From the NCBI GenBank assembly GCA_021731245.1, contig JAKFXT010000005.1:1-62095 (forward strand): 62,095 nucleotides of DNA, given 5' to 3'. The position numbers and the translations under genes are program-made. The first letter of the stretch is position 1; every line of letters begins with the position of its first letter. The stretch is from Patescibacteria group bacterium. Lineage in GTDB: Bacteria > Patescibacteriota > Minisyncoccia > Phycocordibacterales > JAKFXT01. This document shows positions 8,071-57,593 of this stretch, piece after piece. The notes beneath the pieces are model-generated. The model did not search any database. It had not been told where the DNA came from and saw only the letters and a list, made by a program, of their open reading frames with translations.

Positions 8071-8105
8071 TCCCGCCGAAATGAGATACAGAGCGGGATT
8101 TTTTG
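8071..8105 (+). terminator. rho-independent terminator after rplS
   Basis: Stem TCCCGC ... GCGGGA followed by a T run. Confidence 0.6.
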
Positions 8106-8153
8106 ATTTTACAATTGGTATACGCTATATACTTGAGGTATAATATACTAAAT

Positions 8154-8840
8154 ATGGTAAGAGTGGGAGTAAAACCGAAAGGGAAGGTAACTATAAAATG
8201 GTCAGCAATTTTTGCTTATGCGATTGGGCTTATAGTTTCGGACGGGAATTTATCTTCTGACGGGCGCCATTTGAATCTTACATCTAAAGATAGAGAAGTG
8301 ATTGAGACTTTTCGTAAATGTCTCAATATTAAGAATAAAATTGGTCGGAAAGCACGCAGCGGGAAAATAGAAAAGAAATATTATGTCTTACAATTTGGTG
8401 ATGTAATTTTTTACAGATTTCTTTTAGGAATAGGATTAACTCCAGCAAAATCAAAAACAATTGGAAAAATTGAAATTCCACAGAGATATTTCTTTGATTT
8501 TTTACGAGGATCATTTGACGGAGACGGCTGTTTTTATTCTTATTGGGATCCTCGCTGGAAATCGAGCCACATGTTTTATCTTGCTTTTAGTTCAGCAAGT
8601 AAAATTCATACAGAATGGATAAGAAGAGAAATAGGAAAATTTCTGTTTGTTAGGGGACATGTTTCGAAATCTAAAAGAAAAGGGTCAATTTATAATCTGC
8701 GATATGCAAAAAAAGAATCATTGGAAATTATTAAGAAAATGTACTACAATCCGAAAGTCACTTGTTTGTCTCGAAAAAGAGCAAAAATAAAAAAAGCTCT
8801 TTTGATTGAGAGTGCACAACAAAAGACATATTTTAAGTAA
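8154..8840 (+). CDS. free-standing double-motif LAGLIDADG homing-endonuclease-like protein
   Basis: Has two LAGLIDADG-type motifs (AIGLIVSDGNL and FLRGSFDGDGCF). The ATG at 8154 is preferred to the listed 8103. The gene ends 5 nt before tRNA-Leu. Confidence 0.7.
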   Translation: MVRVGVKPKGKVTIKWSAIFAYAIGLIVSDGNLSSDGRHLNLTSKDREVIETFRKCLNIKNKIGRKARSGKIEKKYYVLQFGDVIFYRFLLGIGLTPAKSKTIGKIEIPQRYFFDFLRGSFDGDGCFYSYWDPRWKSSHMFYLAFSSASKIHTEWIRREIGKFLFVRGHVSKSKRKGSIYNLRYAKKESLEIIKKMYYNPKVTCLSRKRAKIKKALLIESAQQKTYFK

Positions 8841-8845
8841 ACATT

Positions 8846-8932
8846 GCCCAGGTGTTGAAATTGGTAGACAATTATCCTTGAGGTGGATATGCCCTTACGG
8901 GCGTGGAGGTTCGAGTCCTCTCCTGGGCACCA
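8846..8932 (+). tRNA. tRNA-Leu (anticodon GAG), class II, CCA encoded
   Basis: Acceptor GCCCAGG/CCTGGGC, anticodon arm TATCC-TTGAGGT-GGATA, long variable arm, and T arm GGAGG-TTCGAGT-CCTCT. Ends in ACCA. Confidence 0.85.
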
Positions 8933-8957
8933 GAAATTTTTACCAAAAAGATTGGTG

Positions 8958-8983
8958 AAAATTTCTGGTGCAGAGGACTCGAA
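8958..8983 (+). repeat. inverted copy of the tRNA-Leu 3' half (anti-acceptor 8958..8971 and anti-T-arm 8972..8983)
   Basis: AAAATTTCTGGTGC is the exact complement of 8927..8940. AGAGGACTCGAA is the exact complement of the T-loop plus 3' T-stem at 8910..8921. Confidence 0.8.
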
Positions 8984-9012
8984 AGACGGAGCTAGTAAAA
9001 GCGAGTAATAAT

Positions 9013-9088
9013 GGTGCCTATGGTGTAACGGTTAACACTCGAGCTTGTGGAGCTTGCGATCAGGGTTCGATTCCCTGTAGGCACCCCA
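9013..9088 (+). tRNA. tRNA-His (anticodon GUG) with encoded G-1 and CCA
   Basis: G-1 is opposite C73. Acceptor GTGCCTA/TAGGCAC, anticodon arm CGAGC-TTGTGGA-GCTTG, and T arm CAGGG-TTCGATT-CCCTG. Confidence 0.85.
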
Positions 9089-9089
9089 A

Positions 9090-9270
9090 ACCAGAAAAAT
9101 CTCTAAATTTTTTAGAGGTTTTTCTGTGTTTTCGGAGTGATGTAAGCGAGTAAAAAATTTTGCTCGCGCCAGGGAATCGAAAAGCTTTTCATTATTTGTG
9201 AAGAATTTTGTTCTGAACAAATCGAAAAGGTATACTGCTCCTGTAAGGAGAGATTCTGTAGGCACCCCAA
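9090..9270 (+). repeat. about 167-nt structured insert after tRNA-His, ending in a direct repeat of the tRNA-His 3' end (9257..9270 equals 9076..9089)
   Basis: TGTAGGCACCCCAA occurs twice. The insert carries hairpins at 9092..9126 and 9147..9168. It also carries the anti-T-arm box CAGGGAATCGAA at 9170..9181, the exact complement of 9066..9077. Confidence 0.75.
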
Positions 9271-9278
9271 TATTTTTT

Positions 9279-9854
9279 ATGAATAAAAAAGGAGAATTAG
9301 AAAAACTAAAAATAGAAATGTTGGCGAATAAAGATTTGCCACTAAAAACCAATTTGGTTTTTGGGGAAGGTAACATAGACGCAGAGATTCTTTTTATTGG
9401 AGAAGCACCTGGGGCAGAAGAGGATAAACAAGTACGGCCATTTGTAGGGCGTTCCGGGCAACTTTTGAGAAAAATGATTCGCGAAAATGGATTAAATGAA
9501 GAAGATGTTTATATAACAAATATTGTGAAGCGTCGCCCGCCGGAAAATAGAGACCCCACCCCAAAAGAAATTGAAAGTTATAAACCATATTTAAAAAGAC
9601 AAATAGAAATTATTAATCCTAAGGTTATTGTAACTCTCGGTAGATTTCCAATGAATTATTTTTTACCGGAAGCGAAGATAACGAGAGATCAAGGTAAATT
9701 ATTTGAAGAGAAAAACAGCGGTTACTATCTTGTGCCAATGTTTCACCCAGCAGCTGCCATCCGCGGCGTTGCCCCCATGCCAATTTTTGAGGCAGGGTTT
9801 AGGAACCTTCCTAATATAATCAAAAGAGTGGATAAATTAAAGAAGAAAAAGTAG
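9279..9854 (+). CDS. uracil-DNA glycosylase, family 4
   Basis: GEGNIDAEILFIGEAPGAEEDKQVRPFVGRSGQLL and HPAAA are family-4 UDG motifs. The listed start at 9198 would translate the tRNA-His-derived repeat, so the ATG at 9279 is preferred. Confidence 0.8.
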   Translation: MNKKGELEKLKIEMLANKDLPLKTNLVFGEGNIDAEILFIGEAPGAEEDKQVRPFVGRSGQLLRKMIRENGLNEEDVYITNIVKRRPPENRDPTPKEIESYKPYLKRQIEIINPKVIVTLGRFPMNYFLPEAKITRDQGKLFEEKNSGYYLVPMFHPAAAIRGVAPMPIFEAGFRNLPNIIKRVDKLKKKK

Positions 9855-9862
9855 TATTATTA

Positions 9863-10084
9863 GTGCAAAAGATGATTATGGCTAAAAAACAAAACAGCAG
9901 AGGGTTTACATTAGTTGAAATGATGTTTTGGCTTGCCCTTGTAGTTCTTTTGGTTGGTGGCTTTATATACAAAAATACTAAGGAAATACAAAAAAATCCC
10001 TCAACAAATAATCAAAAGGGAGGAATTTTTGGTGACTTAAAATCAGAAAGAGAAAATAAACAAAAAATAATAGAAGAGAATTAA
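9863..10084 (+). CDS. minimal prepilin-type protein (N-terminal cleavage/methylation motif only)
   Basis: Has SRGFTLVEMMFWLALVVLLVGG, the G/FTLVE class III signal. At 73 aa there is essentially no globular domain. Confidence 0.55.
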   Translation: MQKMIMAKKQNSRGFTLVEMMFWLALVVLLVGGFIYKNTKEIQKNPSTNNQKGGIFGDLKSERENKQKIIEEN

Positions 10085-10086
10085 CT

Positions 10087-11238
10087 TTATTTTTCTGAAG
10101 CGTCCATAACAGCTTTTGCTACAGATTCCATTACTCCCTCGTCAAATGGTCCTGGGATTATTTTTTCTGGATTTGGATTTTTTACAAGATTAGAGAGTGC
10201 CTCTGCAGACGCCAATTTCATTTGGTCTGTAATTTTTGAAACTCTTGCGTCAATTGCCCCCCGAAATATTCCTGGAAAAACTAAAGAATTATTTACTTGA
10301 TTTGGTAAGTCAGAGCGACCTGTTGCAAAAATTGAGGCACCCCCAGATTGCGCTTCTTCAGGTGTTATTTCTGGAGTGGGATTTGCCATAGCAAAAATTA
10401 TTGCTCCCTCCCTCATTCTTTTAACGTCATCGCTATTTATTACATTACCTTTAGAAACACCAATGAATATATCTGCTCCGACAACAGCTTCGCTTAAATT
10501 TCCATTCTTATTATCACTGTTGGTTATTTTTAATATTTCTATTTTCTCTTTTGTTAAATCATCTCTATCTTTATGAATTATTCCTTTAGAATCACACATA
10601 ATAATGTCTATGAATCCATATAGATGAACTAATTTTGTAATAGCGATACCAGCGGCTCCCGCTCCATTTACAACCACTTTTACATTCTCTTTCTTTTTAC
10701 CAGTTACTTTTAAGGCGTTAATAAGTCCAGCCAAGACAACAATGGCTGTGCCATGCTGGTCATCGTGCATTACGGGAATTTCTAATTCTTTTTTTAATCT
10801 TTCTTCAATTTCAAAACAACGAGGAGCCGAAATGTCTTCCAAATTAATTCCTCCAAAGGTTGGAGCAATGGCTTTGATTGCGGAAATTATTTCTTCTGTA
10901 TCTTGTGTTCCCAAAACTATAGGCACTGCATCGAGGTTTGCGAATCGTTTGAAAAGGGCACACTTTCCTTCCATAACAGGAAGGGCGGCAACGGGCCCAA
11001 TATTTCCAAGTCCTAAAACAGACGAGCCGTCAGTAATTACGGCAACGGTGCTTTTCATTGATGTAAGATTTAGAGCCTCCCGCACGTCTTTAACTATTAG
11101 AAGGCAGGGAGCCGCAACTCCTGGGGTGTAAGCGATTGATAGTTCGTCACGATTATTAAGAGGAAATTTACTTATAATTTCTAATTTCCCCTTATTTTTT
11201 CTGTGCTCTTCAATACTTAATTTGGCGTAATCTTTCAT
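10087..11238 (-). CDS. NAD(P)-dependent malic enzyme (short form)
   Basis: Contains SIAYTPGVAAPC, VITDGSSVLGLGNIGPVAALPVMEGKCALFK and VVNGAGAAGIA. Confidence 0.85.
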   Translation of the reverse strand: MKDYAKLSIEEHRKNKGKLEIISKFPLNNRDELSIAYTPGVAAPCLLIVKDVREALNLTSMKSTVAVITDGSSVLGLGNIGPVAALPVMEGKCALFKRFANLDAVPIVLGTQDTEEIISAIKAIAPTFGGINLEDISAPRCFEIEERLKKELEIPVMHDDQHGTAIVVLAGLINALKVTGKKKENVKVVVNGAGAAGIAITKLVHLYGFIDIIMCDSKGIIHKDRDDLTKEKIEILKITNSDNKNGNLSEAVVGADIFIGVSKGNVINSDDVKRMREGAIIFAMANPTPEITPEEAQSGGASIFATGRSDLPNQVNNSLVFPGIFRGAIDARVSKITDQMKLASAEALSNLVKNPNPEKIIPGPFDEGVMESVAKAVMDASEK

Positions 11239-51449: not shown

Positions 51450-52519
51450 CTCTTCCAACTGATGTTTACGAAAGACAGAAACCGTAGTTAAAAGGCGATT
51501 GTCCCGGTTTTCCGTGATACCGCCCTAAGGCGGTTTTTTGTTTGTAAAATTTACTGAAAGATTGATATTTGATAAACGAATGCCAGCACACTTTTAAGAC
51601 TTAGGGGTCTTTATTGGATGTGGAGTCTGGAAAAAAGTCCGTTACGCAGGTTTAAAATCGTAGCGGCATTGCTCCGAACTTATTTACAATAAGTTTTGGG
51701 TAACAAGTATCATTGAGTAATATCTCATTCACCCCTCACATGAATTAGTGTTGTTGCCTACAAGATTTTAAAGTTTTGTAATCATCAAACATTTCTTCAG
51801 CAAATTAATATTTTGTAGAGAATTTTTTATAAGCAAACTAGCTTGTAACACTAATTCATGTGAGGGACTCGTTTCTTATGTATCGCCTAGATACATAAAA
51901 AGCAAAAAGTCCTGCATGTAAAAATGCAGGTGACTTCGCAGACGCTTCATTCAATAGGACGTTTGTGGGGTAACGGTTTTTAGATTTCCGCATAGGAAAT
52001 TATAAGAGCGTATGGTGGATGCCTTGGTTTCTAAGAGCGATGAAGGACGTAGCATAACTGCGATAAGCTTCGGGGAGGTGTCGAGCAACCTTTGATCCGG
52101 AGATTTCCGAATGGGGAAACCCCTTTGCATAAAATGCGAAGACTTTCCAACTTGATTGGATTGAGCAGACCCTGTGAAGTGAAACATCTCAGTAACAGGA
52201 GGAAAAGAGAACAATTGTTATTTCGTAAGTAGCGGCGAGCGAACACGAAAAAGCCCAAACCTAACCTTTAATTGAGTCTCCCGTTAAAAGGGGATTCAAT
52301 TAAAGGTTGGGGGTTGTAAGGTGACAACGTGACATTTATGTCAGAAAAGTTAAAAAATTGCATAATAAAAGAATTTGCTGGAAAGCAAAACCCCAGAGGG
52401 TAATAGTCCCGTATTTGAAATTATTGTGATCTTTTTTGTTGTCATTCTTGAGTAACTCAGGACACGAATAGCCTGAGTGAACCCGCCGGAACTAACCGGC
52501 AAGGCTAAATATCTTAGAA

Positions 52520-52565
<46 letters not shown>

Positions 52566-52628
52566 GGTAAAGGGAGTGAAATAGATCTGAAACCATATGT
52601 TTACAAGGAGTCAGCGCCGAGCACCACT

Positions 52629-52910
52629 GTGGGTGTTATATAATTTTAGGCAATAGTATGTTTTATACTTATGTACTTAAAAGTGAAAAAAATTCTTCGC
52701 TCTATATTGGCTTTAGTGCCGATTTAAAAAAGCGGTTAAAAAATCATAACGATGGAAGTGTTGATTCAACAAAACATCAGCGTCCGTGGAAATTGATTTA
52801 TTACGAATCTTTTTTAAATCGAGAACAAGCGCAAAATAGAGAAACAAAACTTAAGCAACGCGGAAGAGCGTGGCAAGAATTGAAGCGAAGAATTTTAATA
52901 TAATATCTAG
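52629..52910 (+). mobile_element. ORF-bearing insertion at the tip of 23S helix 25 (intervening-sequence position)
   Basis: It is bracketed by a perfect 13-bp stem: GCCGAGCACCACT (52616..52628) and AGTGGTGCTCGGC (52911..52923). The flanking sequence aligns with the E. coli region around nt 540-560. Confidence 0.7.
52658..52903 (+). CDS. GIY-YIG (UPF0213/YhbQ-like) nuclease-domain protein encoded inside the 23S insertion
   Basis: MFYTYVLKSEKNSSLYIGFSADLKKRLKNHNDG....RPWKLIYYESF...A..RETKLK is the GIY-YIG signature. Confidence 0.7.
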   Translation: MFYTYVLKSEKNSSLYIGFSADLKKRLKNHNDGSVDSTKHQRPWKLIYYESFLNREQAQNRETKLKQRGRAWQELKRRILI

Positions 52911-54273
52911 AGTGGTGCTCGGCCATGGCGTGCCTATTGAAGAATGAGCCAACGAGTTAATGCAAACTGTTTGACTAAGGGCGCGAGCCTGGAGTCACAG
53001 GGAAACCGAGTGTTAATAGCGCGTCTATAGTATGCATTAGACCCGAAGCCAGGTGAGCTACCCATGAGCAGGGTGAAGTTTGTCGAAAGACAGATGGAGG
53101 CCCGAACCGGTTGGAAGTTCAACCCCATCGGATGACTTGTGGGTAGGAGTGAAAAGCTAATCGAACCTGGTAATAGCTGGTTCTCTCCGAAATATCTTTT
53201 GGGATAGCGTCGTATGGTCCTCTTAGGGGTAGAGCACTGGAAGGATTAAACAGGGAGAAATCTCGTTAATCCTATCAAACTCCGAATACTAAGAGTTATA
53301 GTACGGCAGTAAGACCGTGGGGGCTAAGCTTCACTGGTCTAGAGGGAAAGAGCCCAGATCTCAAGTTAAGGTCCCTAAATTTACGTTAAGTGCGCTTAAG
53401 GAGGTGATTTTTCATTGACAATGAGGATGTTGGCTTAGAAGCAGCCATCATTGAAAGAAAGCGTAACAGCTCACTCATCGAGAGAAGTCGCGCCGCAGAT
53501 AATCGGGGCTAAACGTAGTACCGAAACTGAGGACTTGTTTTGTTTTCGAATGAAACAAGTGGTAGGAGAGCATTCCATTCTGCTATGAAGGAAAAGGGTA
53601 ACCGATTCTGGAGCGTATGGAAGAGAGAATGTTGGCACAAGTAACCACAATGCGGGTGAGAAACCCGCACGCCGTAAGACTAAGGTTTCCTTCGCGATGG
53701 TTATCATCGAAGGGTTAGCCGGGCCTAAGGGGATGGTGAAAACCGAACCCGATGGACATACGATTAATATTTCGTAGCTTTCGCGTGTTTTCGATTGGAG
53801 TGACGGAGGATAAAAGAAAAAGCATCTTATTGGATTGATGTAGAAACCCTTAGCATAGTTTTTGAGGCAAATCCCAAAGACTAGTTTAAATACTAATATG
53901 CGAAAGAATCTAAATGTTTTGGGGCAACCCAAGATTGATTTTTTTGAAGAGCCTTCCCAGAAAAACTTCTAGAGCTAAACATGTGAAATCCGTACCGAAA
54001 ACCGACACAGGTGGTCGAGTCGAGTAGACTAAGGCGAACGAGTGAGATTCCCCCAAGGAACTAGGCAAAAAAGCAGCCGTAAGTTAGCAATAAGGCTTAC
54101 CTCTCGCAAGAGAGGTTTCAACAAAAGTATCTCTGGCGACTGTTTACCAAAAACACAGCTCCCTGCGAACTCGTAAGAGGATGTATAGGGGGTGACGCCT
54201 GACCAATGCCAGAAGGTCAAGTAACGACGTTGTGTGAGTCTTCGGATTTACATGGTGATTGTTATAAGCCCTG

Positions 54274-54308
<35 letters not shown>

Positions 54309-55020
54309 TGGTAACGCTGCCTTAGTAAAATTTAGCTATATGCTGGAATATCTGTGTGTAAAACACTGAAGTATCTGGTACTACTATGGTACAATTATCC
54401 CATAGATAATTATGCCAAGTGAAAAAGTATCCAGTGCAGGCAACCAGCAGGAAAGGCTAGAAATTGAAAATTGGATAGTTGGCTTTGCAGATGGAGAAGG
54501 ATGTTTTACGGTAAGTTTAATAAAAAACAAAACAACCAAATCTGGTTGGCAAGTTTTTCCTGAGTTCGTTGTAACTCAAGGAGCAAAAAGCTTATCGGCA
54601 TTACAACTCATTCAAAAATATTTCCAGATTGGAAATATTTTTATCAATAATCGAAAAGATAATCATAGAGAACCTCTCTATCGTTATTGCGTTCGTTCAA
54701 TTGATGAATTGCAGACAAAAATTATTCCATTTTTTTCTAAAAACAAACTGAGAACAGCAAAAGCAAACGATTTTAAAATTTTTGCTTTTATTGTGAATAT
54801 GCTTGTTAAAAAAGAACATTTTTCTCAAAAAGGAATGCAAAAAATTGCAAAACTTATTGAAACTATGAATCTTAAGAAAAAATCAAGATTTCTAGAATCC
54901 TCAGAGACTACACGCTAGACCTCGCGAAAGCGAGTGAAGATATAGTCCGAACTTTGCAGCGATGCAAAGAATAAAATAGAAATATTTTGTCTCCATTTTA
55001 AGATGGAAGTAACATTTAAG
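54309..55020 (+). mobile_element. group I intron at 23S position 1931 (E. coli numbering)
   Basis: The 5' exon ends ...CGGTCCTAAGGT (U). The intron ends in G, and the 3' exon resumes AGCGAAGTACCTTGTCGGGT. The core-like element GAAGATATAGTCC lies near 54937. The intron contains a LAGLIDADG ORF. Confidence 0.8.
54412..54918 (+). CDS. single-motif LAGLIDADG homing endonuclease (intron-encoded)
   Basis: Has the WIVGFADGEGCF motif. A length of 168 aa is typical of I-CreI-like homodimeric enzymes. Confidence 0.8.
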   Translation: MPSEKVSSAGNQQERLEIENWIVGFADGEGCFTVSLIKNKTTKSGWQVFPEFVVTQGAKSLSALQLIQKYFQIGNIFINNRKDNHREPLYRYCVRSIDELQTKIIPFFSKNKLRTAKANDFKIFAFIVNMLVKKEHFSQKGMQKIAKLIETMNLKKKSRFLESSETTR

Positions 55021-55040
55021 AGCGAAGTACCTTGTCGGGT

Positions 55041-55327
55041 AAGGAATTTGCCCGCTTGCGCCGTAAGGCGCATGAAAAAATCTGCTAAAAACGGTGAAGC
55101 CCAATTTCGGAGTCATAGAAATCAAGGTTTATGATGTTGAAGAAAGGGTAATACCGTGGGAACTATAAAAGTAATTTTATAGACCTGTATCGACTGGAAG
55201 CATTACTTTAAAAAGTAGTGAAGAAGATGGCAAGTACGCAAGAATGTATTGTCATAATACGCAGACATCTTAAAAATCTAAGATGAAGATATAGTCAGTG
55301 CCATTAGTAATAATGGAAGACAACATG
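55041..55327 (+). mobile_element. ORF-less group I intron at 23S position 1951
   Basis: The 5' exon ends ...GTCGGGT (U), the intron ends in G, and the 3' exon resumes AAGTTCCGACGCGCACGAATGGCGTAACGA. GAAGATATAGTC lies at about 55286. The exon between introns 1 and 2 is exactly 20 nt (1932-1951). Confidence 0.75.
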
Positions 55328-55971
55328 AAGTTCCGACGCGCACGAATGGCGTAACGACTGGAGAACTGTCTCGGGGGATGGCTCGGTGAAAATACAATAC
55401 CGGTGAAGATGCCGGTTACCTGCAGCAAGACAGAAAGACCCCAGGAGCTTTACTATAGCTTGAGACTGTACTTACGCGACTGCTGCGTAGCATAGATGGG
55501 AGACTTTGAAGGATTGATTTTGGTTGATCTGGAGTCGTCAGTGAAATACCATTCTGCATTTGTGTAAGTACTAACCATATCGGAAAAAAATGATATGGGA
55601 CACTCTCTGGTGGGTAGTTTGTTTGGGGCGAATCCCTCCTAAAGAGTAACGGAGGGGCTTATTAAGGTCATCTAGGCGCGAATGGAAACCGTGCCGATAG
55701 TGTAATGGCAAAAGATGGCTTGACTGTAAGGGGTGCATCCCGAGCAGGTGCGAAAGCAGAACATAGTGAACCGATGGTCCGCGTTAGATGCGGCCGAAGA
55801 TTAACGGATAAAAGCTACCCTGGGGATAACAGGCTAGTTGTGCCCAAGAGTTCATATCGACGGCACAGTTCGGCACCTCGATGTCGGCTCATCTTATCCT
55901 GGTGGTGGAGAAGCTACCAAGGGTTTGGCTGTTCGCCAATTAAAAAGATACGCGAGCTGGGTTCAAACCGT

Positions 55972-56345
55972 ATAGAAGTTAAAATTTTTAACTTTTTTAC
56001 AGTTTGAATCCGAGGAAAAAGACATTAAATTTAATTTCTGTATTTGAAAAAGTCCCATATTTTGATTTATCAAAATGTGGGTTCTTCCACCAATAAATTT
56101 TGGTGTTAGAAATAGATGAATCAATCAAATCACGGCGGTTGTATAAAGAAATTTATATTAAACCAGTAAACTTATATCGGTGGAATCCAATCTCTTAACA
56201 CGAGAGGATAATACCGAGGGAATTGGCAGCATTAATTTTAATTAATGCGGCACATAGCCCGTAGAGACTAAACGTTTACTACCCACGATGAAAAATATCG
56301 GGGTAATGCTATAGTCCAATGCACGAAGTAATTCGTGGCACCATG
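55972..56345 (+). mobile_element. ORF-less group I intron at 23S position 2593
   Basis: The 5' exon ends ...GAGCTGGGTTCAAACCGT (U), the intron ends in G, and the 3' exon resumes CGTGAGACAGGTTGG. GCTATAGTCC lies at about 56308. Confidence 0.75.
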
Positions 56346-56900
56346 CGTGAGACAGGTTGGTTCTCTATCTGCTGTAGGCGTTGATTCTTGAGAAGACTTG
56401 CTCCTAGTACGAGAGGACCGGAGCGAACTGACCACTGGTCTACCAGTTGTCCTGCCAAGGGCATTGCTGGGTAGCTATGTCGGGAATAGATAACCTCTGA
56501 AAGCATCTAAGAGGGAAGCTAACTTCAAGATTAGGAATCATTATGAGGCTCGTAAGAGATTATTACGTTGATAGGCTTTAGGTGTAAGTGTCGTAAGGCA
56601 TTGAGCCGAGAAGTACTAATTCGCCCAATCCTATGAGGATTTTTGAAAATCGTTTTTACTTTCATACATCGAAATGGTGTATGGAAGATTGAGTGGGATA
56701 TTACTCAATGATACTTGTTAAACCTGCAAAATAATTTAAAGACCCCTAAATTTGTGTGTTTCGTAGAGGGAACTCTCGTCGCCCGTACCTTTCACGGGCC
56801 TTGGCTGTACGGAGAGTAGGCTCGTGCGAGAGAGGGAGGTTTTCATAACTCCCGTTCGCATCTTCTACGAAACACATAAATAAAAAATTCATTTTTTAGT

Positions 56901-57029
56901 GTTGGTGTTTTGACGCAGGGGGCCCGCCTTACAGGCGCAGTACACTTTTCGCATTTTGATTACAAAATGCTCAAAGTTTTGCGAAGCTCCATGTGTTCGC
57001 TTCGCAACCTCTTCCATTCTGACAGAGAA
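56901..57029 (+). pseudogene. 5S rRNA 5'-half relic split by an 82-nt structured insert
   Basis: GTTGGTGTTTTGACGCAGGGGGCC and ACCTCTTCCATTCTGACAGAGAA match the first 55 nt of the intact 5S. They are separated by 56925..57006. No 3' half is present. Confidence 0.6.
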
Positions 57030-57186: not shown

Positions 57187-57312
57187 ATGATACTCTTATG
57201 GGGTGAGGCGCGAACACTTGGAGCGCCGCAAGGCCGGAGCGCGACGGCGCGAGATAGGGCTGAAAGATTTTCTTGCAAGAAAATACTTTTGGCAGTAGGT
57301 AGACGCCAGCAC
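57187..57312 (+). pseudogene. 5S 3'-domain relic carrying element copy S1 (57234..57312)
   Basis: ATGATACTCTTATGGGG and AGTAGGTAGACGCCAGCAC mimic 5S nt 57131..57168. Between them lies about 95 nt containing CCGGAG, hairpin GCGC-GACG-GCGC, GAGATAGGG and an AT-rich hairpin. Confidence 0.65.
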
Positions 57313-57333
57313 TAAGCAATGAATTTTTCTGTA

Positions 57334-57457
57334 AAATACTCTTTAGGGGTTGCCAAGCTGTGGAACAGCTTGGCAAAATCGGAGCGCGACGGCGCGAGAT
57401 AGGGCTGAAAGATTTTTCAGCAGAAAAATACTTTTGGCAGTAGGTAGTCGCCAGAAC
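57334..57457 (+). pseudogene. second 5S 3'-domain relic carrying element copy S2 (57380..57457)
   Basis: ATACTCTTTAGGGG ... AGTAGGTAGTCGCCAGAAC. The core is near-identical to S1, but a different upstream hairpin is present (TTGCCAAGCTG/CAGCTTGGCAA). Confidence 0.65.
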
Positions 57458-57486
57458 ATAGAATTTAATTTTCCGTTCCTTCAATT

Positions 57487-57593
57487 CGGGGTGTAACTCA
57501 GCCTGGTAGAGTTCTCAAACTAGTTTTACCCGGGTGACAACGTCCGGTGCTTAAGTTTGAGGGTTGTCGTGGGTTCAAATCCCACCACCCCGA
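57487..57593 (+). tRNA. tRNA-like gene with a 31-nt insertion in the anticodon arm; isotype uncertain (the loop CTTAAGT would give anticodon UAA)
   Basis: Acceptor CGGGGTG/CACCCCG plus A73, D arm ACTC-AGCCTGGTA-GAGT, and T arm GTGGG-TTCAAAT-CCCAC. The anticodon stem halves CTCAA (57514..57518) and TTGAG (57557..57561) are separated by 38 nt instead of 7. Confidence 0.55.

Follow-up and report, generated by a model that had tools for sequence, protein, structure and literature searches.

Four tRNA genes in the 62,095-nt stretch of Patescibacteria DNA analyzed here (contig JAKFXT010000005.1; the whole stretch is hereafter called the window) are followed by small structured units that hold copies of the 3′ part of the tRNA gene itself. 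The genes are those of tRNALeu(GAG), tRNAHis(GTG), tRNAArg(GCG), and tRNAVal(TAC), and the copies include an inverted T box, the reverse complement of the T loop and T stem of the preceding tRNA. The units are bounded by direct copies of the tRNA 3′ end, polymorphic among related genomes, arranged in tandem at some genes and horizontally sourced, and they contain a conserved junction that can fold. We tentatively favor the view, as possible though short of probable, that the boxes are parts of a family of small insertion units directed to the 3′ end of tRNA genes through a folded recombination site comparable to the integron attC or the CTX-phage attP, by a mechanism that we infer. No description of such an arrangement was found in the literature or in Rfam.

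The window has a GC content of about 36–44%, and its nearest relatives are labelled Patescibacteria or Parcubacteria. Syntenic relatives were gathered through UppS and ribosomal protein L19 and are given as L-numbered loci (L002–L260); their assemblies are independent (NCBI, ENA, JGI, and Logan), and L215 is the closest relative of the window (L19 90% identical). L215, L222, and L254 come from groundwater assemblies of Hainich H41. tRNA genes were called by ARAGORN and Rfam, and the comparison set comprises 75 distinct tRNA-plus-trailer contexts from the window and related Patescibacteria. A metagenome scan based on a UppS alignment and a scan of genome contigs returned mostly distant or unrelated bacteria, and served only as background and as a first hint of recurrence in Patescibacteria.

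An Inverted Copy that Ends in the T Loop

An inverted copy was defined as an exact reverse complement, 10 nt or longer, of the 3′ part of the same tRNA, located at most 300 nt downstream. Such a copy is present in 12 of the 75 contexts, compared to a mean of 0.22 and a maximum of 3 in shuffled sequences (an enrichment of more than 50-fold), and it was found in neither the 75 upstream flanks nor the 30 unrelated bacterial and viral control loci, which bears out the initial annotation of the window in its judgment that chance is not a credible explanation. The 12 contexts span tRNAArg(GCG), tRNAArg(TCT), tRNALeu(GAG), tRNAHis, tRNAVal, and tRNASer(TGA) in at least eight genomes. At the T-loop end, 10 of the copies terminate at T54 and the other two at G53.

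The matches that the initial annotation had listed for tRNALeu, tRNAHis, and tRNAArg were all recovered when the sequence was checked. At tRNALeu, TTCGAGTCCTCT (8910–8921) is complementary in 12 of 12 positions to AGAGGACTCGAA (8972–8983), and GCACCAGAAATTTT (8927–8940) is paired 14/14 by 8958–8971. The hairpin of roughly 30 bp that had been proposed here does form, although its inner arms reach 20 nt rather than 14 (8927–8946 with 8952–8971), so that it comprises 12 + 20 bp with a 5-nt bulge, CCTGG. Compared to shuffled sequence, the fold z-score is −7.5 for the tRNALeu precursor as RNA (8846–9013) and −10.5 for 8905–8990 as single-stranded DNA. At tRNAHis, TTCGATTCCCTG (9066–9077) is complementary 12/12 to 9170–9181, and two hairpins lie between the T arm and the box (9092–9126 and 9145–9167). 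The similar arrangement suspected at tRNAArg(GCG) likewise proved real, with a 12/12 inverted copy (1092–1103 with 1169–1180), a 15/15 inner palindrome and a fold z-score of about −10.5 as single-stranded DNA.

The box is a reverse complement, and not a copy of the other T-stem strand. In the window tRNALeu the 5′ strand of the T stem reads GGAGG and the box AGAGG, and in L254 the two read GTGGG and GCAGG, respectively; at these G-U positions the box complements the 3′ strand of the T stem exactly and does not reproduce the 5′ strand. That the box directly duplicates the 5′ strand of the T stem together with the T loop was ruled out, since the loop bases and G-U positions fit a reverse complement only (tRNALeu and tRNAHis of the window, and L254), and the same positions exclude a structured module inserted into the T arm with duplication of TTCGA. 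Behind the terminal TCGAA of the box comes AGAC (tRNALeu and tRNAArg) or AAGC (tRNAHis); the AAAGAC and AAAAGC previously reported at this place do occur, but their first two letters are the last two A's of the box.

The 12-nt box is not the whole feature, as it had first been taken to be, but the best-preserved portion, at one end, of an inverted copy (I) that extends over the tRNA 3′ end and its trailer. Local alignment shows that, between the central hairpin and the box, the trailer and the 3′ strand of the acceptor stem recur as a decayed reverse complement, which aligns clearly at the window tRNALeu (with a 5-nt deletion), the window tRNAArg, L012, and L257. For tRNAHis of the window (CGGAGTGATGTA) and of L004 (GGTAGGCTA), the alignment returned the box only (12 nt in the window), and the remainder was read by eye. 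Because the inverted copy includes the trailer, it was the genomic locus that was copied. Remnants of an oppositely oriented tRNA gene, which the initial annotation had named as the finding that would undo its interpretation, were sought by comparing the module downstream of the box with the reverse complement of tRNA positions 1–53; the z-scores of −1.7 to 2.5 show no similarity, so that the boxes are not such remnants, and a tRNA model run on the units gave no match at E ≤ 5.

Architecture and Folding of the Units

A unit follows the order D, hairpin, I, Y, and then a second D, over about 115–185 bp. D denotes the tRNA sequence from T54 to the 3′ end, the central hairpin is terminator-like, and Y is a structured module of type A or type B. 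The second D, present after Y in many cases, runs from the T loop to the mature 3′ end and lacks CCA unless the gene encodes it. The direct copies are therefore copies of DNA and not of mature tRNA, which also removes an origin by reverse transcription. Among the hairpins, that at 9092–9126 is directly followed by a T run, as in an intrinsic terminator, whereas those containing a box are followed by AGAC or AAGC; no terminator-like site was found at 900–1300 of the window.

The box and the second D pair as a helix, P0, with TTCGAnT and its complement as its core. P0 forms the base of a three-way junction, the other two arms of which are a long hairpin, P1, and a short one, P2, joined by a GTACWG linker; GTA is present in every P2 loop. 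A further hairpin, P(−1), stands directly 5′ of the tRNAHis box, and hairpins like it occupy the same place in L004, L254, the window tRNAArg, L224, and L241; its position relative to the decayed acceptor complement differs between units. A covariance model built from eight units (R1) recovers nine tRNA-linked units and four Y cores without P0, the fourth of the latter being located at 9077–9134 of L012. In a 12-sequence alignment, compensatory changes occur in 17 of the 20 pairs of P0, P1, and P2, and 88.5% of the cells are paired, counts that lean towards the model since the alignment was fitted to it; this level was reached by none of 500 shuffles, and slid controls remained at or below 55%. 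G-U (10) and A-C (7) combinations are about equally frequent at the paired positions, hence neither strand, nor RNA over DNA, is favored. If the second D is intact, it can replace the tRNA as pairing partner of the box. In the predicted minimum-energy folds, the box is paired with the T region of the tRNA, and in the tRNAHis precursor the 5′ acceptor strand is paired with the distal direct copy.

The type B module (about 75–95 nt) follows the pattern CCGGAGC, hairpin, GCGAG-N-CGGGGTyGCG, hairpin, ATCyGTGACmAC, and may contain tandem G-A pairs. It replaces type A in some units and also stands alone beside tRNA and rRNA genes. Copies were found in the window (5953–6013, 6076–6160, 57235–57320, and 57380–57465), in L224 (near 6278 on the forward and near 1727 on the reverse strand), in L244 (from about 7605), and in the tRNALeu trailer of L215. 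Only tRNA, rRNA, and group I intron reach the gathering score of Rfam 15 in the window, the units have no credible match at E up to 5–10, and neither Y type matches any Rfam family. Comparison by eye with hammerhead and other ribozyme cores, the k-turn, and a tRNA-like cloverleaf gave no consistent match.

Signature of Insertion among Related Genomes

Direct repeats of the tRNA 3′ end mark the units at several genes, with 20 nt at tRNAVal and 15 nt at tRNAHis of the window, 21 nt at tRNASer of L219, 18 nt at tRNAArg of L254, and 22 nt at tRNAGly of L003; overall they measure 8–22 nt and have a variable start (positions 54 to 63). The repeat at tRNAHis (9075–9089 = 9256–9270) had been noticed before but counted as 14 nt, one short of its length, and its identity stops one base past CCA. 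tRNAVal had been overlooked altogether: its 3′ 20 nt (5897–5916) recur exactly at 6014–6033 with a decayed inverted copy between them, and the independent assembly L094 reproduces this arrangement.

The units are present in some relatives and absent in others. L221 and L222 carry tRNALeu, 39 nt of spacer, and a tRNAHis with one difference from that of the window, with both box and repeat absent, and the tRNALeu and tRNAHis sites of L215 are also without box or repeat. L257 and L252 share the same tRNALeu with different, differently decayed trailers, and L215 and L216, whose L19 proteins are identical, diverge completely right after the 3′ end of tRNALeu. Some copies match a foreign allele. In L244, the direct copy behind tRNASer corresponds to the allele of the L219 type and not to the resident gene. 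In L219, the direct copy and the box behind a different tRNAHis allele both correspond to the window-type allele, with box plus Y about 85% identical to the window. Tandem units were found at tRNAVal of the window (two) and at tRNAHis of L219 (about 1.5).

A common scaffold is shared by units at different tRNA genes. The unit at tRNAArg(TCT) of L254 and that at tRNAHis of L004 have P(−1), the base of P1, and a GGGGTAC motif in common (102 of 134 aligned positions), and in each the box and direct copy match the unit's own tRNA. Between the window and L224, P(−1) plus box at tRNAArg(GCG) is about 95% conserved, though the L19 proteins are only 67% identical.

tRNAVal(TAC) lies opposite to its window orientation, relative to the UppS-RluD-rplS block, in L002, L004, L215, L219, L221, L224, L234, L244, and L254, and in the same orientation in L252, L257, and L260, which indicates repeated local inversion or re-insertion. 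Genes for homing endonucleases appear to be concentrated at the tRNA genes considered here. A free-standing LAGLIDADG homing-endonuclease open reading frame (ORF) at 8103–8840 on the forward strand (Pfam LAGLIDADG_3, E = 1e-7) is located between rplS and tRNALeu; it is common to the closest relatives (L215–L218) and missing from L219, L221, L224, and others. HNH endonuclease genes adjoin tRNASer in L219 and L244, and a NUMOD4/HNH gene follows tRNALeu in L244.

Comparison with Known Systems

To our knowledge, the landing marks known so far at tRNA genes are direct repeats around gene-carrying elements. Tyrosine integrases insert mobile elements into the 3′ part of tRNA genes, leaving the identity blocks attL and attR as described by the Campbell model, and a T-loop sublocation class of such sites was reportedly defined by Williams in 2002. 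The units resemble these sites in that their repeats extend from the T loop or its vicinity to the 3′ end of a tRNA that stays intact, and in that they are present or absent among relatives (empty in L221, L222, and L215) and pile up in tandem. Unlike them, the units measure only about 115–185 bp and carry neither integrase nor cargo, and unlike ordinary att sites they hold an inverted copy of the target and a conserved three-way-junction module. In short, direct repeats, polymorphism, and tandem accretion match tRNA-targeted integration, whereas the inverted copy with its fixed T54 end, the small size without genes, and the conserved Y junction do not.

Sites that recombine as folded single strands are a second point of comparison, namely the integron attC, with its order R″-L″...L′-R′, and the attP(+) hairpin of the CTX phage that is used by XerCD. 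As in these, inverted and direct copies of the target core flank a variable structured loop of about 60–95 nt, the direct copy is shared with the target, and an array consists of target core, short insert, and hairpin site, repeated. However, the units have no GTTRRRY/RYYYAAC core, the core of P0 being of its own kind, and their paired sequence is the T loop and T stem of a tRNA and changes with the target. A third group consists of elements that bear guides, such as the bridge RNA of IS110, the exon- and intron-binding sites (EBS/IBS) of group II introns, and the guide tetranucleotides of IS200/IS605. The combination of a conserved scaffold with a variable segment complementary to the target (tRNAArg of L254 versus tRNAHis of L004) is shared with these, but the units lack a recombinase, reverse transcriptase, or TnpA gene, leave direct repeats of 12–22 nt of the target, and have their complementary segment within a longer inverted copy that includes the trailer. 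An IS110-type bridge RNA element was rejected since the units have no ORF and do have long direct repeats, and a miniature inverted-repeat transposable element (MITE) or other miniature derived from an insertion sequence since their inverted repeats vary with the tRNA and their direct repeats vary in length and start.

With intrinsic terminators and palindromes of the repetitive extragenic or interspersed mosaic type (REP-BIME), the units share terminator-like central hairpins and, in Y, a short structured intergenic repeat that is also dispersed; unlike these, the box hairpin has no T tail, and the arms of the palindrome copy the neighboring tRNA instead of following a genome-wide consensus. 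In Thermococcales, the integrase Int-pTN3 inverts DNA between inverted tRNA att sites (PMC5495485). Here too, inverted segments of tRNA genes would serve as substrates of DNA recombination and tRNA genes lie at rearrangement breakpoints, but that system is archaeal, its full tRNA genes are kilobases to megabases apart, and it has no local hairpin unit and no Y.

A Possible Route of Insertion

Under the favored interpretation, the units would have arisen by site-specific, Campbell-type insertion into the segment of a tRNA gene from the T loop to the 3′ end. The recombinase would be supplied in trans, and the incoming DNA would bring a replacement tRNA 3′ end, by which the tRNA is proposed to stay intact. 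By analogy with attC or the CTX-phage attP(+), the inverted copy may enable folding of the element's site into a hairpin in which the T-loop/T-stem duplex of the target is re-formed. The near-palindromic core of the T loop (TTCGAA/TCGA) would mark the crossover or junction, and a self-complementary core at this point could explain why every copy ends at T54. The high stability of the region from D through hairpin to I as single-stranded DNA (z about −10) was counted in favor of a folded site, and the similar numbers of G-U and A-C combinations fit a palindrome acting at the DNA level.

Several observations weigh against this interpretation. None of the units contains a recombinase gene or any ORF; no Phage_integrase match was found among the called genes within about 10 kb at any related locus, nor among the 10 window ORFs scanned, and the neighborhood of the units yielded no IntI or Xer gene. 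Scans of IMG/VR and of phage and plasmid collections revealed neither an excised nor an autonomous copy. A duplex circle of only 115–185 bp would be awkward to recombine, no two copies are close enough in sequence to indicate recent movement, the core triplets of attC are absent, and Y cores without P0 occur away from tRNA genes as well. The conservation of P(−1) plus box between the window and L224 could equally be read as selection for an RNA function. A viral or plasmid origin was rejected separately: two pattern scans of IMG/VR gave chance matches only, R1 matched none of the loci from the second scan, and BLAST of phage and plasmid collections was empty.

A more specific proposal, which we regard as doubtful, is that the units are integrated copies of a hitherto unrecognized, minimal, gene-less class of mobile element in Patescibacteria. 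Such an element would be a hairpin or dumbbell of about 120–180 nt (D, hairpin, I, and Y) with a stem mimicking the T-loop-to-3′-end duplex of one tRNA gene; it would insert through a folded site, single-stranded or RNA-templated, and could be retargeted by changing about 5 nt of the complementary segment.

Alternative Explanations

The initial annotation had offered, besides an element footprint and a DNA-level recombination or cruciform site, a clamp on the tRNA precursor. In its wider form, this would make the unit a cis-acting, co-transcribed RNA trailer whose box pairs either with the T arm of the tRNA (clamp) or with the downstream direct copy (release), and which works as a switch or as a platform for processing or stability. 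The tRNA-linked units do lie on the strand of their tRNA, P0, P1, and P2 covary strongly, the predicted minimum-energy folds engage the T region with the box and, at tRNAHis, the 5′ acceptor strand with the distal copy, P(−1) plus box is nearly identical between the window and L224 despite the divergence of the hosts, and the tRNALeu box lies inside a probable tRNALeu–tRNAHis co-transcript. We nevertheless think such a role unlikely. Boxes are absent from close relatives that have tRNALeu and a nearly identical tRNAHis, and are thus not needed for tRNA maturation, and at tRNAHis a terminator-like hairpin with T tail separates the tRNA from its box. The box has a second possible partner wherever the second D is intact, one of the Y cores runs antisense to the rRNA operon, G-U does not exceed A-C, and Rfam gives no match, while insertion is indicated by repeats whose limit coincides with the tRNA 3′ end, by tandem units, and by foreign alleles among the copies. 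The clamp is weakened accordingly, and the two other original readings, footprint and DNA-level site, come closest to direct-repeat-bounded units that are present or absent, tandem, and built on a shared scaffold.

The same palindromes may instead be by-products of replication or repair, if a nascent strand folded back at the terminator hairpin, copied the tRNA 3′ end backwards by template switching, and realigned through the TCGA of the T loop, with later slippage giving direct copies and tandems. This would account for an inverted copy that forms one arm of a long imperfect palindrome centered on a terminator-like hairpin, trailer included, for its stop at the palindromic T-loop core in all cases, and for the stability of the palindromes as single-stranded DNA. 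It leaves unexplained the conserved and covarying Y between I and the second D, the scaffold shared by different tRNA genes, the direct copies that end at the tRNA 3′ end without trailer, and the foreign alleles, and it needs at least 12 independent events with one common end point, so that we consider it quite unlikely; as the sole cause, duplication, inverted triplication, and template-switch duplication were each ruled out, since the third copy goes no further than the tRNA 3′ end and the second junction is occupied by Y. It is improbable, too, that the units are decayed relics of an ordinary integrated prophage, plasmid, or island, with the repeats as attL and attR, the body deleted, and the inverted copies produced by integrase-driven inversion at the symmetric TTCGAA overlap. 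All units are very small and share one ordered architecture, an outcome not expected from random deletions in large elements; relic genes and integrase fragments are missing both within the units and next to them; and inversion across a symmetric core should leave an I–D palindrome with an empty center, the place that the conserved Y occupies. Relics would fit with direct repeats of the tRNA 3′ end, the classic mark of integration into tRNA genes (Campbell model; reportedly Williams 2002), with the varying orientation of tRNAVal among relatives, and with the inversion of DNA between inverted tRNA att sites by a tRNA-targeting integrase (PMC5495485). Chance, fold-back chimeras of assembly, or remnants of whole tRNA genes on the opposite strand have a negligible probability in our estimate: metagenome and amplified-genome assemblies can hold inverted chimeras, but the architecture recurs in independently produced assemblies, L094 repeating the tRNAVal layout, while the enrichment over shuffles and fixed end point speak against chance and the lack of similarity to tRNA 1–53 against remnants.

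Features of the Window

The coordinates of the units, their parts, and the dispersed modules are compiled in Table 1.

Table 1. tRNA genes, unit components, and dispersed Y modules in the window.
Feature	Position	Strand	Description	Evidence
Module Y type A and decayed direct T copy of tRNAArg	1019–1091	−	T copy TCGAGATTC; homologous to L224 1506–1601	R1 58.8 bits
Inverted T box of tRNAArg(GCG)	1092–1103	−	minus strand reads GCAGGAATCGAA	
Acceptor/trailer palindrome and P(−1) of tRNAArg	1104–1168	−	1129–1143 with 1154–1168 (15/15); P(−1) 1104–1128	
tRNAArg(GCG)	1160–1232	−		ARAGORN, Rfam
tRNAVal(TAC)	5842–5915	+		ARAGORN, Rfam
tRNAVal unit 1	5917–6013	+	hairpin 5917–5934; decayed inverted copy ~5935–5951 (GGACGAGAA, expected GGGACTCGAA); type B module 5953–6013	
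Exact 20-nt direct repeat of tRNAVal 3′ end	6014–6033	+	C56 to one base past the end	repeat search
tRNAVal unit 2, tandem to unit 1	6034–6160	+	hairpin 6040–6062; truncated inverted copy TGTGCG 6070–6075; type B module 6076–6160 ending GTGACCAC	
tRNALeu(GAG)	8846–8932	+	CCA encoded; T54–T65 (8910–8921) is the D partner of the box	ARAGORN, Rfam
Central palindrome of tRNALeu	8927–8971	+	arms 8927–8946 (acceptor end, CCA, trailer) and 8952–8971; 5-nt loop	repeat search, folds
Inverted T box of tRNALeu, AGAGGACTCGAA	8972–8983	+	reverse complement of T54–T65	
Short type B module	8984–9013	+	AGACGGAGC...AGCGAGT; fills the tRNALeu–tRNAHis spacer	sequence, type B comparison
tRNAHis(GTG)	9014–9088	+	CCA encoded; T54–T65 at 9066–9077	ARAGORN, Rfam
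Terminator-like hairpin	9092–9126	+	16 bp, then T tail; center of the tRNAHis D-hairpin-I palindrome	terminator scan, repeat search
Decayed reverse complement of tRNAHis trailer and acceptor 3′ strand	9128–9145	+	GTTTTCGGAGTGATGTA, expected GTTTGGGGTGCCTA	read by eye
Hairpin P(−1)	9145–9167	+	AGCGAG...CTCGC; directly 5′ of the box	fold
Inverted T box of tRNAHis, CAGGGAATCGAA	9170–9181	+	5′ strand of P0	
Module Y type A	9182–9255	+	P1 ~9185–9229; GTATACTG 9230–9237; P2 9238–9250 (CTCC-TGTAA-GGAG)	R1 86 bits, covariation
Direct repeat of tRNAHis 3′ end, CTGTAGGCACCCCAA	9256–9270	+	P0 3′ strand and copy of acceptor 3′ strand	
Two dispersed type A Y cores without P0	14896–15092	+	14896–14963 and 15043–15092; downstream of the L11 gene	R1 36.7 and 17.5 bits
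Dispersed type A Y core	56924–56980	−	23S–5S spacer; antisense to the rRNA operon	R1 30.3 bits
Two tandem type B modules	57235–57465	+	CGGAGCGCGACGGCGCGAGATAGGG...; between 5S rRNA and next tRNA	

The dispersed type A cores of the window, in which P1 and P2 are joined by GGTGTACTG and P2 has a TGTAA loop, each stand directly 3′ of another hairpin. In L215, a gene annotated as “23S rRNA intervening sequence protein” (PF05635) occupies 9743–10108 between nusG and rplK, where the window has no ORF; the PF05635 family also takes in the accessory Avd proteins of diversity-generating retroelements.

Other features were noted around the rRNA genes. A tRNA-like gene of 107 nt at 57487–57593 on the forward strand, downstream of the 5S rRNA (Rfam tRNA, 42.6 bits), was missed by ARAGORN and carries about 35 additional nt around the anticodon arm, either as a short intron or as an extension of the arm. 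The 23S rRNA gene (51989–56639 on the forward strand, 4.65 kb) contains a group I intron (54 bits) and an ORF for a LAGLIDADG_1 endonuclease (E = 8e-23), with features at 54412–54918 and 55031–55317; introns and endonuclease insertions are common in the rRNA genes of Patescibacteria. Just upstream of the 23S rRNA lies a long inverted repeat (51731–51870, CCCTCACATGAATTAGTG... and ...CACTAATTCATGTGAGGG), the right arm of which runs into GAGGGACTCG, a 10–11-nt match to the reverse complement of the T region of tRNAVal that may be due to chance or belong to an rRNA processing stem.

Implications

A streamlined bacterial lineage is thus found to carry gene-less, structured mini-inserts, each holding an inverted and a direct copy of its target with a constant end in the T loop. 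If mobile, they would rank with the smallest known insertion elements that are specific for a target, and would extend folded-hairpin recombination or guide-like targeting to tRNA genes; if acting as RNA, they would constitute a lineage-specific layer of control over tRNA precursors. Either way, two conserved non-coding modules absent from Rfam, Y type A and type B, have been defined, the units account for the frequent rearrangement and allele replacement at the tRNA genes of these genomes, and they provide searchable markers for the genome dynamics of uncultured Patescibacteria.

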